Source: an uncultured Actinomycetes bacterium
Lineage (GTDB): Bacteria; Actinomycetota; UBA4738; HRBIN12
Assembly (NCBI GenBank): GCA_963731925.1
Contig: CAVSXK010000016.1
Coordinates: forward strand, 65,730-129,729
Length of the DNA stretch: 64,000 nucleotides
Direction: 5' to 3'
A program made the position numbers and the translations under genes. The notes below the pieces were generated by a model that was not told where the DNA came from, made no database searches, and saw only the letters and a list, made by a program, of their open reading frames with translations. Shown here one piece after another: positions 8,133 through 53,298 of the stretch; the first letter of the stretch is position 1; every line of letters starts with the position of its first letter.

Positions 8133-8975
8133 TCCGGACGATCGCCGCGACGCGCGCGGCCTGCGAGCGCGCCCGCGCCGAAGGCAGGACCGTCGGATTC
8201 GTCCCGACGATGGGAGCGTTCCACGAGGGCCACCGTTCGCTGCTACGGCGCGCCAGAGGCGAGCGCGACCTCGTCGTGGTCTCGATCTTCGTCAACCCGC
8301 TGCAGTTCGGCGATCCCGCCGATCTCGAGGCCTACCCGCGCGACGAACGGGCGGATCTGGAGATGGCGCGAGGCGAACGGGGTCGATCTCGTGTTCGCGC
8401 CGTCGGCGGACGAGATGTACCCGAACGGTGAACCCGAGTTCACGGTCGACCCCGGGCCGCTCGGTGAACGCCTCGAAGGTGCGTCCCGCCCCGGTCACTT
8501 CCGCGGGGTCGCGACGGTGGTGGCCAAGCTCTTCGACACGGTCGGCCCGTGCACCGCGTACTTCGGCGAGAAGGACGCGCAACAGCTGGCCGTGATCCGG
8601 GGCATGGTCCGCGATCTCTCGCTCCCGGTGGATGTTCGTGTGTGCCCGGTCGTGCGCGAACCCGACGGCCTCGCGCTCTCCAGCCGGAACCGACTTCTCT
8701 CACCCGACGAGCGCGAGGCCGCCACCTGCCTGTTCCTCGCGCTCTCCGAGGCCGCCGAGCTCGCTCGCGCCGGTGAGCGCGAGACCGGCCGGTTGGTGGC
8801 CGCGATGGCTCGCGAGATCGGCGCCACGCCCCTCGCGCACATCGACTACGTGGCCGTCGTGGACGAGCAGACGTTCGAGGAGGTCCGGACGATCGCCGGC
8901 CCCGCTCGCGCGCTCGTCGCCGCTCGCTTCGGCCGGGTGCGGCTCATCGACACACTCCTCCTGCCCACGGCGTGA
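8129..8975 (+). pseudogene. panC: pantoate--beta-alanine ligase PanC, reading frame interrupted by a single-base indel near 8366-8370
   Basis: The N-terminal half is in frame 2 (VIRTIAATR...[14 protein letters not shown]...[24 protein letters not shown]). The C-terminal half is in frame 0 ([15 protein letters not shown]...HFRGVATVV...). The two halves join cleanly if one nt is removed from the gcgcg run at 8366-8370. Confidence 0.7.
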
Positions 8976-40546: not shown

Positions 40547-42208
<1,662 letters not shown>

Positions 42209-47414: not shown

Positions 47415-47585
47415 CTAGTGCTTGATCGGCCAGGTGGCGGCCGCGAGCGCGGCGCGTCCGATCCTCCGGGTGATGCCCCGCGACTCCATGGCCTTGCCCT
47501 TGCGTGTCGAACGGGCCAGACGCGCGGCCTCGGCCTCACGAACGCGATCGGCGATCTGGTGCCGGGCCATCTCTCCGCTCAGCAT
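47415..47585 (-). CDS. 56-aa basic hypothetical protein
   Basis: A strong GAAGGAGG RBS 6 nt upstream of the ATG. The ORF is MLSGEMARHQIADRVREAEAARLARSTRKGKAMESRGITRRIGRAALAAATWPIKH. Confidence 0.5.
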   Translation of the reverse strand: MLSGEMARHQIADRVREAEAARLARSTRKGKAMESRGITRRIGRAALAAATWPIKH

Positions 47586-47851
47586 CTCCGAACCTCCTTC
47601 TGGAACCTTCGCGCACGGTACGTCCGCGCCGTGGTCGCGAGCGGTGACGTCGCTCACGACCGCGGGGTGACGTCCGTCACGTTGCACGCCGGCCGCTCGA
47701 GGTCGAAGATGCGGCCCGTGATCCCGTCGATTCGCGCTCGGAGCGCGCCTGTTCGTGGCCGTCCTCGTCTGGATCGCTGGCCTCCCCGGGACCGGCTGGC
47801 GGCGCAGTCCGCTTCGCCGAGCCCTAGCGCGGTCCGAGCGTCGCGGGCCAG

Positions 47852-50582
47852 GTGACCGGCGCCCTCGCGGCCGGCTCCAGGCTCACCATCCGTGTCGACG
47901 CGACGATGCCGGGTGGCTGGGAGGCCCTCCATCTCGTGGAGGTGGCCATCGTCTCCGGCGAGCGAGGAGCTCGAGCGGACCTGCGCTTCGACATCGAGGA
48001 CAACAAGCTGACGATCGGCGAGCAAGACGTCATCGTGGGAACGGGTGCGGTCGCTACTGGCGAGTACCTGCGCGTCGGCGGCGCGGACGTCGTCGTGACC
48101 ACCGGCGGCGCGAACCTCTCCTTCGAGGTGGACGCCCGCGTCGTGAAGACCATTCCCGAGAGCTCGCGGTTCGAGCTGAGCGTCGTGGACGATCTCGGGG
48201 CGTCGGCCGAGGTCCTCGAACGCTGGCGGAGCCCGAGGGCGGCGGGATCACCTGGGGGACGGTGGTCGCCCTCATCGCCGCCGCGCTGTTCGCCGGAGGG
48301 TTCGTCGGGAACATGTTCGCGTCCAAGCGCCGGCCACCCGCACGAGCGTCGGTCTACGACGCGGTCCAGCGCCGGCTCGACGATCAGGCGGGCAGTCGGC
48401 CCCGCGCCGATGAGCCGGAGCGTCCGAGCGGGCGTCTACGCGGCTCGTCGAGGACTCGATGGAACGGCCCGAGCGCCAGCGACGGCCGTGGGCTGTGGGA
48501 TCGGCTCGCATGCTGGTCGACCCGACGGAGTTCCGGCCGAAGCTCGCTGACGACATCGAGATGAAGGAGTTCCAGCTACGCTGGGGCAACGACTACGTGA
48601 TGATCGCGAACCCGCGGGATCTCCTGCACTACCGGCTCGAGGCCCGGTGAGATCGAGCTGCTGCCCGCTGATGGACGGCACGCGCACGGTCAAGGAGATC
48701 GTCGTCGAGCGGTTCCGCGAGTCCGGCGACATGGAGCTGTCGGGCGTCGCCGACCTGGTGCGAACGCTTCGGGTCGGCAACTTCCTCGACGGACGCCGTA
48801 CGTCGACGTTCGACGCATGCGTCGAGCGGTCGATCGACACCGCCGAACGCCGCCGCGAGGCCCGGGAGTTCGCGAAGACGCTATCGATCGAATGGAGAGG
48901 GGCGCACCGGCTGGTCAAGTGGCTCTACGGCCACTGCCTGCGGTGGGTCTTCATCCCGGCGGTCGGGGCCGTCGTGTTGCTCGGCGGCGGTCGTCGGCTT
49001 CTTCGCGTTCTGGTCCTCGTACCAGGACGGCACGTTCTCGATCCCGGCGGGTCGCTCGCCGCGAATCGCTCATCCTGCTGGGATCGACTACTTCCTGATG
49101 TTCATGCACGAGCTCGGGCATGCGGTCGTCCTCGTGCACAACGGGCGACGGATCAAGAGCGCCGGGTTCATGATCTACTTCGGATCGCCGGCGTTCTTCG
49201 TCGACTGCTCGGACGGCCTGATGATGGACCGGGGCAAGCGGATCGTGCAGTCGTTCGCCGGCCCGTTCGCGGAGCTCGTCCTCGCCGGCTCGCCTCGGCG
49301 ATCGTCGCCTGGTCGTTCCCGGAGTGGTCGCTCGCGCCGAGCCGTTCTACAAGTTCGCGGTCCTGAACTACTTCGTGATCTTCATGAACCTGATCCCGCT
49401 GCTCGAGCTCGACGGCTACTGCATCCTCGCGGACCTGATCCAGGTCCCCGACCTGCGCCGAAGTCGCTCGCAGTTCATCCGCCACGACCTGTTCCACAAG
49501 ATCCGGCGGCGGGAGCGCTTCACCAAGCAGGAGTCGGGCTCGGCCTGTACGCGATCGTCGGGCGTCGCGTTCACGATCTTCTCCCTCTACTGGTCGGTCT
49601 ACTTCTGGGAGACGGTGTTCGGTGGGCTCGTCGAGCCGGCTGTGGGACGGAGGGTCACCGGCACGCGGTCCTCCTCGTCGCCTGGCGCTGTTCATGACCG
49701 GCCCGCTGATCCGCGGGCTGATCACGCTCCTCCGCTCGCTGTGGCCGGGCGGCGCGAGCGTCTGTCGCGCGATCCGGTTCCGGCTCGAGACCGGGTGGCG
49801 GGTGGAGGCAGCCGAGCTGATCGACGCGCTCCCGATGTTCGAGGACATCCCGGTGGACGTGCTCTGCACGAGATCGCCGGGCCGCGTCCGGCTCCGAGAT
49901 CCTCGGCTGGCAAGTCGGTCTTCCGCCAGGGCGACCGACCCGACGCGTTCTACGTCGTGCGCAAGGGCGTCCTCGAGGTGGTCGAGGAGGATCCGAGAAC
50001 GGGCAAGGAGCGCTCGATCCGGACGCTCGGCCGAGGCGAGTCGTTCGGGGAGCTCGGGCTGGTGACCGGCGCGCCGCGGGCCGCGACCGTGCGCGCCGTG
50101 GAGGACGCCGAGGTGTTCGAGGTGGACAAGGGCGACCTTCGACATCTGCTCGCCGACAAGCTCCAGCTGCCCGACTTCGAGCCGACGCTCCAACAGGTCG
50201 CCGAGCTCCGAGAGCTGCCCTGCTTCGCCTCCCTGGGGACCGACGCAGCTATCGGAGCTGCTCGATCGGGGCGCATGGCGTGAACGTCGCTCCGGGCGAG
50301 CAGATCATCGAGCAGGGCGAGGAAGGGGATTCGTTCTATGCGATCTGGTCCGGCCAGGTCGACGTCGTCAAGGACGAGAGGCTGGTGACGACGATCGGCC
50401 CCGGATCGTATTTCGGCGAGGTCGCCCTGCTGATGGACGTGCCCCGGACGGCAACCGTGGTGGCACGCACGCCCGCCGCGGCTCTTCCGGCTGGACCGGG
50501 AGGGTTCGAGCAGGCTGGTCGCTGGAGCGTTCCGGCGGGGGACGCTCGATCCTCGCACGTCGGTCGGACGTCGCAGCACTGA
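47852..50582 (+). pseudogene. multiply frameshifted gene(s): N-terminal domain + TM, peptidase M50 (site-2 protease, HELGH) core, two cNMP-binding domains
   Basis: Recognisable protein segments succeed one another in frames 2, 1, 0, 2, 0, 2, 1, 0/2, 1, 0. Examples are the HELGHAVVL zinc site (frame 0 at 49098), FGELGLVTGAPRAATVRA (frame 1) and FGEVALLMDVPRTATVVA (frame 0). At least 10 frame changes occur in 2.7 kb. Confidence 0.55.
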
Positions 50583-50602
50583 TGAGCGACGAGAGGCGGA
50601 GA

Positions 50603-50825
50603 CGATGGACTGCTGGCACTGCCAGCGAAGACCGCGGTCGGGGCTGCCGCTTCTGTGGCCGAGGGATCTGCGAGGACCACGTCGAGACGCACCCGTTCAT
50701 CCTCGAGCTGTTCCGGGCCAGTGACGTCACCCAGGGCGCTCGTCGTCGAGGACGCCTTGTTCTGCGGGGCGTGCACGCCCCGGCCCGATCCCCTCGACCT
50801 GCCCGAACTCGACATCGAAATGTGA
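50603..50825 (+). pseudogene. DUF2180-like zinc-ribbon mini-protein, at least 2 frameshifts
   Basis: MDCWHC (one frame), GCRFCGRGICEDHVETHPFILELF (second frame) and ALVVEDALFCGACTPRP...DIEM* (third frame) together rebuild a two-CxxC protein of ~73 aa. Confidence 0.45.
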
Positions 50826-51206
50826 CGTACGTCACCGGTCTCGATGTGACGGAGGTCACATGCGGAGCGGTGACGCGCGACACACCGATCTGAGTGACGC
50901 ACGAGCACGATGATGCTGCACATGGAATCGCAAGCCCACGAGGGCCAGAGCGACGGGGGAGGTGACGATCGTGGCGGAGAAGAAGATCTCCCCGAAGGCG
51001 CCGGCCGCGAAGAGCAAGAAGGAGTACGGCGAAGGCGGCGGCGCACCCGTGTGTCCAAGAAGAGGATCAAGCGGGTCAAGAGGGTCAAGAAGCAGCTGGC
51101 AGATAGATCGCGAAATCCGATCTCCGCACGGCCGGGCTCCGGATTTTCGGGGCCCGGCCTCGTGGCGTTCCCGGGACCATTCGCGAGGGCGACCGGGAGG
51201 CTAGCT

Positions 51207-51933
51207 GTGACGACGCTTGCACCCGTGCCGACGACGGAGCTCAGCGACGCGCTCCTCGAGGGGATGGCCCGAACGCCCCTGTTCGAGGGGGCGTCGCAGA
51301 GACGATCTCGCGCCTCGCCGCGCAGGGCGTGACGCGCCGGTTCCGGCGGGGGACCTACCTGTTCCATCAGGGTGACGAGGCGCCGGACGTCTACTTCCTC
51401 GTCAGCGGTCGCGTGGAGATCAGCTCGCTGTCCTCCGACGGGCACCGCCAGCTCCACACGACGCTCGACGTGCCGCAGTTCTTCGGCGAGCTCGGCGTGC
51501 TCGGTGACCAGCCGCAGGTCGGCGGCGGCTCTCGCGCTCGGAGGATTCGGAGGCCTGGCGGGCGAGCGGTCCCGTGCTCCTCGACTTCCTGATCGAGGAG
51601 CCCACGGCCGCCAGGGCGTTGCTCCGGGCGCTCGCCCGACAGGTGTTGTCGCAGGAGGCCTTCGTCGAGGACCTGCTCTACCTCGATCTGAAGGGCCGCG
51701 TCGCCAAACGGCTCCTCCAGCTGGTCTCGCCGTCGCTCGACGAGCTCCCGGCCGATGGTGCGGTCGTGCCGTCGATCGTGACGCACGCGGACCTCGCGAG
51801 CCTGTGTGGCGGCAGTCGCGAGAACGTCACGCGGATCCTGTCCGACTTCCAGCGCCGCGGGTTCGTCGAGCGCGACGGCAAGCGGTTCGTCTTGAAGAAG
51901 ATCTCCGGGCTCGCCAAGCTGGCCGGCCTCTGA
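51207..51933 (+). pseudogene. Crp/Fnr-family transcriptional regulator (cNMP-binding + HTH), 2 frameshifts
   Basis: The N-terminus is in frame 0 (...MARTPLFEGAS) and the cNMP core in frame 2 (RRFRRGTYLFHQGDEAPDVYFLVSGRVEI...FGELGVLGD). The C-terminal HTH is in frame 1 (THADLASLCGGSRENVTRILSDFQRRGFV). Confidence 0.6.
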
Positions 51934-51938
51934 GACCG

Positions 51939-52259
51939 ATGTCCTATCGCACGTTCCGTCGCAGGCTGAGCGAGGCGACGGCCGCCTACGATTGGCTCGA
52001 GGGCGTCTCGTTCGTCCTCGGGCTGGGGTTCCTGCTCCTCGCGGTCCTGTGCGTCTGGGGGATCGTGACGGCGATCGTGAACATCGGCGACACGGAGGCT
52101 CCGCCGGAGACGCCCGTGGTGGTCGGCTTCCTCGAGGTGACCCGCGGGTTCGCGATCGTGCTGTTCGCCGTGTTCGGTCTGGTCGCGTTCGGCGTCGGGT
52201 GGTTCCTCGCCGGCGACACGTTCAAAGGGTGGTTCGCTCGCGCCAGGTCGCGGAGCTGA
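51939..52259 (+). CDS. small two-TM membrane protein
   Basis: 106 aa with hydrophobic segments GVSFVLGLGFLLLAVLCVWGIV and FAIVLFAVFGLVAFGVGWFLA. Confidence 0.5.
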   Translation: MSYRTFRRRLSEATAAYDWLEGVSFVLGLGFLLLAVLCVWGIVTAIVNIGDTEAPPETPVVVGFLEVTRGFAIVLFAVFGLVAFGVGWFLAGDTFKGWFARARSRS

Positions 52260-52269
52260 CGGCTTCGGG

Positions 52270-53298
<1,029 letters not shown>

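Follow-up and report, generated by a model that had tools for sequence, protein, structure and literature searches.

Frameshifts across a cNMP-linked M50 protease module of an uncultured soil actinobacterium are probably a consensus artefact of mixed strain alleles

Introduction

Has an uncultured soil actinobacterium lost a cyclic-nucleotide signalling module, or does its deposited sequence misrepresent intact genes? The question arises at ~47.7-51.55 kb of the window (the whole 64,000-nt stretch of DNA analysed here), where a GC3 frame plot changes phase repeatedly and no stop or start boundaries accompany the changes. A literal annotation of the block would yield five pseudogenes and a lost cAMP-responsive protease/regulator module, which we argue is the wrong conclusion. 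A previous sequence-only reading had described repeated frame switching within ~3.7 kb. The switching is real and denser than it claimed, with at least 33 changes.

Results

Five frameshifted genes

The block contains five genes that are real, conserved and syntenic, where four open reading frames had been proposed. They and their neighbours are as follows (window coordinates, strand, description, basis).

47421..47585, minus: conserved small gene, 56 aa, left flank (single-frame full-length tblastn and alignment to L001/L002 orthologues, 0 frameshifts)
47709..48409, plus: membrane protein gene, 231-233 aa (coordinates mapped from L083)
48406..50582, plus: peptidase M50 with two cNMP-binding domains, ~721 aa when read correctly (Pfam, alignment vs 121 homologues)
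50605..50825, plus: DUF2180-like Cys-rich zinc-ribbon protein, 71-72 aa (alignment vs L083 and L085 orthologues)
50962..51095, plus: conserved 42-45-aa lysine/arginine-rich small ORF (…VKRVKRVKK) (alignment vs the L083 42-aa and L089 45-aa ORFs)
51207..51933, plus: Crp/Fnr regulator, cNMP-binding and HTH_Crp_2 (Pfam, alignment vs the L001 Crp)
51939..52259, plus: 106-aa membrane protein gene, right flank (0 frameshifts, 99% identical to L083)
52273..53298, minus: moaA (GTP 3',8-cyclase), right flank, intact (single-frame match, 86% identity to L001)

The frame changes extend over 47,713-51,540 (~3.83 kb) at about one per 115 bp and hit all five genes. The first, at ~47,713, lies directly 3' of a conserved ATG at 47,709, upstream of the 47,852 from which the block had been thought to run, and the last is at 51,540. 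Every shift position named previously (48235, 48440, 48648, 48990, 49285, 49320, 49540, 49670, ~50540) corresponds to a called shift, and others had been overlooked (48508, 48788/48814, 49062/49084, 49901, 50245, 50282, 50478).

The product of the first gene, which had no Pfam match, is a membrane protein whose hydrophobic N-terminal segment is followed by a domain of unknown family and by a transmembrane segment at the C-terminus. It had been taken for the N-terminal part of the M50 protein; in relatives it is a separate 231-aa gene with its own stop, which overlaps the M50 start in L083, L085 and L089. The gene has eight frame changes (~47713, 47725, 47776, 47798, 47826, 47966, 47979, 48215). 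Alignment to the 231-aa L083 and 233-aa L085 proteins gave 88% identity once corrected, and a further two 1-nt insertions, both private, sit immediately 3' of the ATG.

For the M50 gene, frameshift-aware protein-to-DNA alignment against 121 homologues called 13-21 frameshifts (mean 16.6), against a baseline of 0-2 calls in intact orthologues. At least 18 frame changes were found (48465, 48508, 48642, 48664, 48788, 48814, 48983, 49062, 49084, 49290, 49343, 49534, 49560, 49636, 49901, 50245, 50282 and 50478), with a few more likely near 49667/49680, 49870-49900 and 50510-50530. The corrected reading carries HELGH (~49107-49121) and NLIPLLELDG (~49387-49416). The M50 gene matched PF02163 at 29.1 bits (cut-off 27.2), a family precomputed on 120/120 listed homologues, and PF00027 at 134.5 bits in two stretches, which places two cNMP-binding domains in tandem on the C-terminal side of the protease.

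The remaining genes are damaged in the same manner. Three frame changes, not two, interrupt the DUF2180-like gene (50629, 50643, 50729), which is 88-89% identical to its L083/L085 orthologues once corrected. PF09947 matched the L083 orthologue at 25.8 bits (cut-off 22.2), covering only positions 1-32 of the 68-position profile, and had no match to the window's copy read naively; the family assignment is to that extent partial. The lysine-rich ORF has the single change previously counted (~51034), and additionally its stop TAG is CAG in the window. Crp (PF00027 55.7 bits, PF13545 52.1 bits) has three changes where two had been reported: 51300 and 51540, both private, and ~51519, where the window, L083 and L088 all have an extra A (CCGC[A]GG) although their codon backgrounds differ. 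Rather than from blending, this base may stem from a genuine polymorphism or from systematic basecalling error.

Indel-only damage between intact flanks

No internal stop codon occurred in any corrected coding path of the five genes, in agreement with the previous observation; the one stop reported for Crp is its own terminal TGA. Damage in the block consists of indels only, and the corrected proteins have normal amino-acid identity to their orthologues. Corrected M50 is 65.6% identical to L001 (63-72% for intact orthologues of sister lineages), and DUF2180 and Crp reach 84% and 73%, comparable to the intact control genes PrmC (74%) and MoaA (86%). The window has 34 private indel events (23 of 1 nt, 8 of 2 nt; 22 insertions vs 12 deletions), while intact alleles have 5-9 each. 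Since these private indels showed no obvious homopolymer association and were not centred on runs, we rejected a simple homopolymer-error model for the block. The profile, with its insertion excess off homopolymers, is unlike that of natural coding indels.

Outside the block, alignment to orthologues ran in a single frame for PrmC, MoaA, the 56-aa and 106-aa genes and every gene as far as 61.9 kb, and the exact MoaA protein is a member of a 687-member 90% cluster. The lesion previously suspected in panC was found, as a frame change between ~8,344 and 8,496; that a housekeeping gene is frameshifted indicates a contig with residual indel errors. A whole-window GC3/Kadane frameshift detector, which flags genes whose coding signal gives out a long way from their stop, lacked specificity; one gene it flagged, at 33.8-35.05 kb, was intact on inspection.

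The locus in conspecific and related contigs

Comparison with the locus in close relatives found intact M50 in L083 and intact Crp in L101, both from the same species as the window. The L083 flanks (41.5-47 kb and 51.75-61.9 kb) differ from the window by ~1% mismatch and 7 indels. Within the block, mismatch rises to 10-15%, with 108/115 indel events, exceeding the indel density of the flanks over 50-fold. M50 and the DUF2180 gene are intact in L083 (frameshifts: M50 0, Crp 1). L101, a short-read contig, has flanks ~98% identical to the window and a block only 55-80% identical, making it a third allele; its Crp and DUF2180 genes are intact and its M50 C-terminus is in frame.

The same syndrome recurred in L088, a contig of the same species from another sample with a Flye-style name. 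It has 22-25 frameshifts in M50, 6 in Crp, and 34 private indel events, the same number as the window. No stops were found with 2/3 M50 references or in Crp, and one with reference P0094. Its left half is 96-98% L083-like, yet frameshifts are already present there. L088 and the window are 73-84% identical in the block and have a few frameshift sites in common. L089 had two frameshifts in M50 and one in Crp.

Short-read contigs were intact. The extra Crp base at ~51519 was absent in 22/22 short-read metagenome contigs found at that site, and Crp was in a single frame in 21/22, the exception being one call in L104. M50 was intact wherever complete (0-1 aligner calls, within aligner noise). Three short-read contigs (L084, L086, L087) all terminate 21-76 nt upstream of one common point, the block border, as is expected at a strain-variable junction. 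A MoaA scan of the genome-contig collection found no conspecific genome, its best match being 80-84% identical. The module was absent in some related genomes.

A mosaic of two alleles

We compared the window with two allele classes, allele A (L083) and allele B (L103 and L085, from a related species with flanks ~80-90% identical to the window), which share ~67% DNA identity. The mosaic stretch is as follows.

48137..51200, no strand: A/B mosaic stretch (three-way and seven-way alignments, runs test, HMM segmentation with controls)

Of the 938 sites that distinguish A (L083) from B (L103), the window has the A nucleotide at 427 and the B nucleotide at 464, with 47 matching neither; it departs from the nucleotide common to both alleles at 58/1,762 sites. 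Matches to A and to B were clustered (runs test z=-8.35), and HMM segmentation placed 24-62 switches between them within 2.8 kb, compared with 0-5 in the controls L085 and L089. The window's private branch length was ~2-4%, vs ~16-17% each for A and B. Private indels were not enriched at A/B switch points (p=0.83), and private substitutions did not cluster near indels (p=0.61). We considered whether L083 might be the mosaic instead. This was ruled out because its M50 gene is intact in a clean single frame and uniformly divergent from all other homologues, so the mosaic is the window.

Discussion

We conclude, with a probability of roughly 0.8, that the frameshifts are artefacts of the consensus sequence, produced by collapsing or mixing haplotypes of a locus that varies between strains. 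Block and allele-variable segment coincide, and the same syndrome is present in a second assembly of like type. We infer that the window derives from a long-read assembly and that its sample contained both allele classes; this assumes a B-type allele between flanks like those of the window, B having been seen in the related species. The proposed course of events would be as follows. The 3.8 kb module would exist in the soil actinobacterial population as very different alleles (~55-75% amino-acid identity) between flanks 98-99% identical. Where a long-read metagenome assembler does not separate strains, the shared flanks would anchor reads of different alleles into one pile-up. The consensus or polishing step might then follow one allele over some tens of bases before changing to the other, with 1-2-nt insertions and deletions entering where divergent reads defy consistent alignment. 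Flye is documented to merge conspecific strains into consensus contigs (PMC8302730), and indels in Nanopore consensus sequences break up gene calls (PMC9262707). The Microflora Danica MAGs rest on Nanopore reads alone, with Flye --meta for assembly and a single Medaka round for polishing (PMC12313526); the contigs of the relatives found here are named in the same way as theirs. Judging from the sequence, the organism most likely carries the five genes intact, and the cAMP module is probably functional in vivo.

The suspicion of a local sequence-quality problem thus held in so far as two alleles are blended and short-read contigs are intact; mere under-polishing does not describe it. That simpler account, in which one genuine allele (a natural recombinant, or a third allele between A and B) lies in a low-coverage, unpolished patch with no blending, is unlikely. 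Reads of other strains would fail to align locally, and the resulting low coverage would leave indel errors like those of raw reads. Indel-only damage, clean flanks and the recurrence in L088 and L089 fit it equally well, and it is favoured by the scatter of private indels relative to the switch points and by frameshifts within the L083-like half of L088. However, a genuine third allele should have substitutions of its own, and the window's short private branch is strongly non-clocklike beside those of A and B; dozens of switches within 2.8 kb between alleles so dissimilar are also implausible for natural recombination. Among 5.8 billion clusters, moreover, there was no intact protein >74% identical to the corrected window M50, while flanking genes had 67-687 relatives at >=90%. 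A natural multiply-recombinant allele may nevertheless be the substrate beneath the indel errors, few reference alleles having been compared.

Real and recent inactivation, by a burst of small indels or by import of a decayed mosaic segment, is very improbable. The frameshifts do stand in the deposited sequence, with fragment ORFs catalogued as proteins; a few sites are common with L088 and one with L083; and the module's absence from some relatives makes it dispensable. That some 33 indels came with neither nonsense mutations nor raised amino-acid divergence nonetheless contradicts known mutation spectra, and the damage ends precisely where the allele-variable block does. The sites common to the window and L088 are not inherited lesions because the two are not sister alleles, and apart from the single Crp site in L083 the lesions are not shared by the closest relatives. 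Conspecific L083, L101 and the short-read contigs are intact, the one Crp call in L104 excepted. The proposal that a whole cAMP module has been inactivated is not supported by this evidence, which includes conservation like that of intact orthologues. Recoding, whereby programmed ribosomal frameshifting or transcriptional slippage would restore the frame, has next to no chance of being correct. Nothing specific speaks for it beyond the +1 Crp site that recurs in three assemblies. Orthologues are encoded in one frame, and over 30 shifts, occurring in either direction and lacking a common slippery motif, are incompatible with any known mechanism; the number and heterogeneity of sites effectively refute it.

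The preferred reading, a blended consensus, most resembles the collapsed-strain errors of metaFlye and Medaka-type assemblies. Both show indel-driven gene fragmentation, a consensus that represents no single haplotype, a strain-heterogeneous region between common flanks, and recurrence in assemblies of the same pipeline type but not in short-read contigs. They differ in that documented strains are >98% identical while the block alleles share far less, and the window's platform is inferred. Such unusually divergent alleles account for a dense block of indels rather than scattered SNP-level ambiguity. Homopolymer indel errors of the Nanopore/454 type likewise give frameshifts without nonsense mutations, and the isolated panC lesion may be one, whereas the block is insertion-biased, often by 2 nt, and off homopolymer runs. 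Pseudogene decay of the Mycobacterium leprae type also interrupts adjacent genes by multiple frameshifts; the block differs in having no stops, no excess substitutions, a single 3.8 kb extent and intact conspecific copies.

The protein family can be placed among site-2-protease-like M50 and cNMP-binding fusions beside Crp/Fnr regulators, with HExxH, NxxPxxxLDG and two PF00027 domains. This architecture has hundreds of homologues (717-780 aa) in Actinomycetota MAGs, and appears to have no characterised member. Two other assignments were rejected. The best NCBIfam match, a daptide/RiPP intramembrane HExxH protease (NF041824), scored 142 bits vs a cut-off of 300, and no RiPP tailoring enzymes were found among the module's neighbours. 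PADLOC matches to the Pycsar anti-phage system were confined to the cNMP-binding stretch (residues ~614-704), and the module contained no cyclase or TIR.

The signs seen here offer a compact diagnostic for such artefacts in long-read MAGs, usable in genome scans: indel-only damage, sharp overlap with a segment that varies between strains, agreement of nearly every nucleotide with one or other of two known alleles, and intact short-read counterparts. A real if modest lead lies in the divergent allele classes. The locus does vary between strains, and M50 proteins of different classes are ~55-65% identical. We lean slightly towards the view that one soil actinobacterial species maintains a 3.8 kb cassette in at least three deeply divergent allele classes between flanks 98-99% identical. 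The same leaning applies to its predicted products: an M50 protease gated by cNMP, a membrane protein, a zinc-ribbon protein, a short basic peptide and the half of Crp that acts as sensor. The right-hand boundary falls within crp and separates the cNMP-binding domain from the conserved HTH domain. From sequence comparison, the locus seems to be an intraspecific hotspot at which alleles of an uncharacterised, putatively cNMP-gated M50 protease module diverge. If true, the cassette pattern would imply either that the cassette is replaced or that strong diversifying or balancing selection acts on a module for cyclic-nucleotide signalling.

Frameshift detection and gene content

The window is actinobacterial DNA with ~69% GC, and because of this high GC content its reading frame is visible in third-position GC. 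A GC3 frame plot showed repeated phase changes at ~47.7–51.55 kb (the block) with no stop/start boundaries at those points. With a frameshift-aware protein-to-DNA aligner written for the purpose, the gene for the large M50 protease contained 13–21 frameshifts (mean 16.6) against 121 references, at positions that agreed across references, while intact orthologues received 0–2 calls. The upstream 231-aa gene had eight frame changes, the DUF2180-like gene three, the lysine-rich ORF one, and Crp three, giving at least 33 between 47,713 and 51,540. The frameshift-riddled cluster described in the sequence-only reading is thus confirmed and extended, and every switch position listed there was among the called shifts. 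No stop codon lay inside any corrected reading path of the block genes; the one stop scored for Crp was its own terminal TGA.

Gene order was kept in relatives L001, L002, L003-L005, L010, L016, L083, L085, and L089:

Conserved gene order in relatives
First: 56-aa gene, minus strand
Second: membrane protein, 231–247 aa, its stop overlapping the M50 start
Third: M50 gene with two cNMP-binding domains
Fourth: Cys-rich protein, 71–72 aa
Fifth: basic ORF, 39–45 aa
Sixth: Crp
Seventh: membrane protein, 106 aa
Eighth: moaA, minus strand

Because relatives share this order, the N-terminal domain and TM previously read as part of the large protein form a gene of their own, and five genes are hit rather than four.

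Known families (M50/S2P, cNMP-binding, and Crp/Fnr) account for the block genes, with only partial DUF2180 membership. Pfam assigned Peptidase_M50 and two cNMP_binding domains to the large gene, and cNMP_binding and HTH_Crp_2 to the regulator. A homology search with the large gene returned >1,200 proteins; the 120 homologues listed had M50 and cNMP-binding Pfam domains and lengths of 668–780 aa, mostly 717–780. Tests for membership of the module in Pycsar defence systems and of the M50 gene among RiPP proteases were negative. The best NCBIfam match of the M50 core (L083:6892-9054, orthologue of window 48406-50582) was the daptide-type intramembrane HExxH protease, at 142 bits against a cut-off of 300, with YydH/LiaK epipeptide proteases matching less strongly. 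These matches hint that the M50 protein, which adjoins two small ORFs, may process peptides.

Conserved lysine/arginine-rich ORF, 42–45 aa, between the zinc-ribbon gene and crp
Window 50962-51095
L083:9417-9545
L089:5405-5542

This ORF (…KKISPKAPAAK…VKRVKRVKRVKK) had no family match, and a GC-rich hairpin (GGCCGGG…CCCGGCC) comes after it. Relatives end it with TAG, where the window reads CAG. The M50/Crp cassette is present or absent across the clade, since no such module was detected between PrmC and moaA in several related Actinomycetota MAGs (L006-L009, L012, L013, L018), where a few kb separate PrmC and moaA.

Indel-only damage

PrmC, the 56-aa gene, the 106-aa gene, MoaA, and all genes to 61.9 kb were in a single frame against orthologues, and the window's intact proteins were members of 90% clusters with 67–687 members each. 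Damage in the block is indel-only, and frame-corrected proteins were as close to their L001 orthologues as those of intact sister lineages.

Identity to L001 orthologues: window (block genes frame-corrected), then intact sister lineages
M50: 65.6%; 63–72%
DUF2180: 84%; 79–90%
Crp: 73%; 70–81%
PrmC (intact control): 74%; 70–83%
MoaA (intact control): 86%; 82–86%

Farther away, the lesion noted earlier in panC (8204–8963, plus strand) was also present, as one frame change between ~8,344 and ~8,496 that places the N-terminal part and the C-terminal FGEKD part in different frames. Isolated in a housekeeping gene, it fits with indel errors remaining in the contig.

The block as a mosaic of two alleles

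We aligned conspecific contig L083 (ena:ERZ25039504:contig_31190, 337,538 bp) to window positions 41,517–61,932. Outside 47.0–51.5 kb the two differed by ~1%, with 7 indel events; the remaining 108 of 115 indel events fell inside, where mismatches rose to 10–15%. The L083 M50 gene read cleanly in one frame over 721 aa and was very divergent, with 54–57% identity to homologues P0001, P0094, and P0016, which are 71–73% identical among themselves.

We aligned the window with L083, taken as allele A, and L085, the contig carrying the best match (P0001), taken as allele B. Of the variable sites in this three-way comparison, the window agreed with A at 765 and with B at 478, and was unique at only 70. 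With related-species contig L103 as B, the counts over 48.4–51.2 kb were 427, 464, and 47 (neither), and where A and B agreed the window differed at 58 of 1,762 sites. As so few sites match neither allele, the window's private branch is ~2–4%, versus ~16–17% for each allele, and the relation among the three is not tree-like. Matches to A and B were clustered (303 runs observed vs 424 expected, z=-8.35), and HMM segmentation placed 24–62 switches in 2.8 kb, compared with 0–2 in control L085 and 1–5 in control L089. L083 was divergent from B-type proteins in A-tracts and B-tracts alike, which rules it out as the mosaic and leaves the window in that role. The window was L083-like up to ~48,130 and from ~51,225, yet carried private indels there too. 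No B-type allele with window-like flanks was seen directly.

Recurrence in long-read-style assemblies

A second conspecific contig, L088 (ena:ERZ25039541:contig_49459), had 22–25 M50 frameshifts and six in Crp. Its alignments contained no stops against two of three M50 references or Crp, and one against P0094. Its right half was a partial A/B mixture, and at 49,515–49,580, for example, L088 and the window carried identical strings that are hybrids of the two intact alleles. L088 and the window each had 34 private indel events, compared with 5–9 in intact alleles. L089 had two M50 frameshifts and one in Crp; L083 had none in M50 and one in Crp.

We scanned a metagenome collection for the Crp site and recovered 22 short-read contigs. 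Crp was in one frame in 21 of these, and M50 was intact wherever complete. In conspecific short-read contig L101 (Ga0209859_1000014; ~98% identity over 51.75–64 kb), which represents a third divergent allele, Crp, the DUF2180 gene, and the small ORF were intact and the M50 C-terminus was in frame. Short-read contigs L084, L086, and L087 all end 21–76 nt upstream of one point, the block's right border, as expected at a strain-variable junction.

An inserted A (CCGC[A]GG) breaks Crp in three long-read-style assemblies (window ~51519, L083 ~9946, L088 ~5945), on two different codon backgrounds, and was absent from all 22 short-read contigs. It is probably a systematic basecalling error, though it could be a real polymorphism. 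Methylation-linked miscalling is a possibility because the true sequence would contain CCGCGG/CGCG.

Outside the block, fragmented genes occurred at L083:5066-5737 (PrmC of 223 aa vs 287 aa in the window), L088:10127-11552 (a split sulfatase), and L089:8766-11611 (several split genes), showing a general indel-error background in these assemblies.

Origin of the frameshift cluster

The genome matches included long-read MAGs of the Microflora Danica project, and those relatives that have 'contig_N' names and neighbouring ERZ accessions look similar to them. That project worked from Nanopore data alone, with Flye --meta assembly and one Medaka round (PMC12313526); Flye collapses conspecific strains into consensus contigs (PMC8302730), and Nanopore consensus indels fragment gene calls (PMC9262707). 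We infer that the cluster is an instance of such collapsed-strain consensus error: identical flanks would have recruited long reads of different alleles, and the consensus of a mixed, poorly alignable pile-up would yield an A/B blend with 1–2-nt indels. The private indels (23 of 1 nt, 8 of 2 nt; 22 insertions vs 12 deletions) were not homopolymer-centred, and because of these sizes, the insertion excess, and the lack of homopolymer centring, a mixed-read consensus fits better than homopolymer error. Among such errors, the block would stand out only for how divergent the merged alleles are and for the indel density that this produces.

The main competing explanation, that coverage was low over a real intermediate allele, is also an artefact reading and draws support from the private indels, which were not enriched at inferred A/B switch points. 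Under either, the frameshift cluster is not a real biological feature, and the sequence-quality problem offered in the sequence-only reading is supported by the allele blend and the intact short-read M50 genes. Real pseudogenisation, the inactivated module of that reading, would make the frameshifts genuine; it is not supported and is very improbable: the corrected paths lack internal stops, corrected identities are normal, and conspecifics L083 (M50, DUF2180 gene) and L101 (Crp, DUF2180 gene) carry intact module genes. To our knowledge, ~30 natural indels without nonsense mutation or excess substitution fit no known bacterial mutation spectrum. Collapse of divergent strain alleles into one consensus is our preferred reading.

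Allele diversity of the cassette

Within the species, the whole cassette appears to occur as three or more deeply divergent alleles set between flanks that are 98–99% identical:

Cassette loci
Window 47650-51560
L083:6150-9990
L101:1-1800

Pairwise M50 identity among L083, L101, and the L103/L085 type was 55–65%. On the left the cassette begins where the 231-aa gene starts; on the right it ends within crp, after the part for the cNMP-binding domain and before that for the HTH domain. What is left of real interest is this divergence of cassette alleles within one species.
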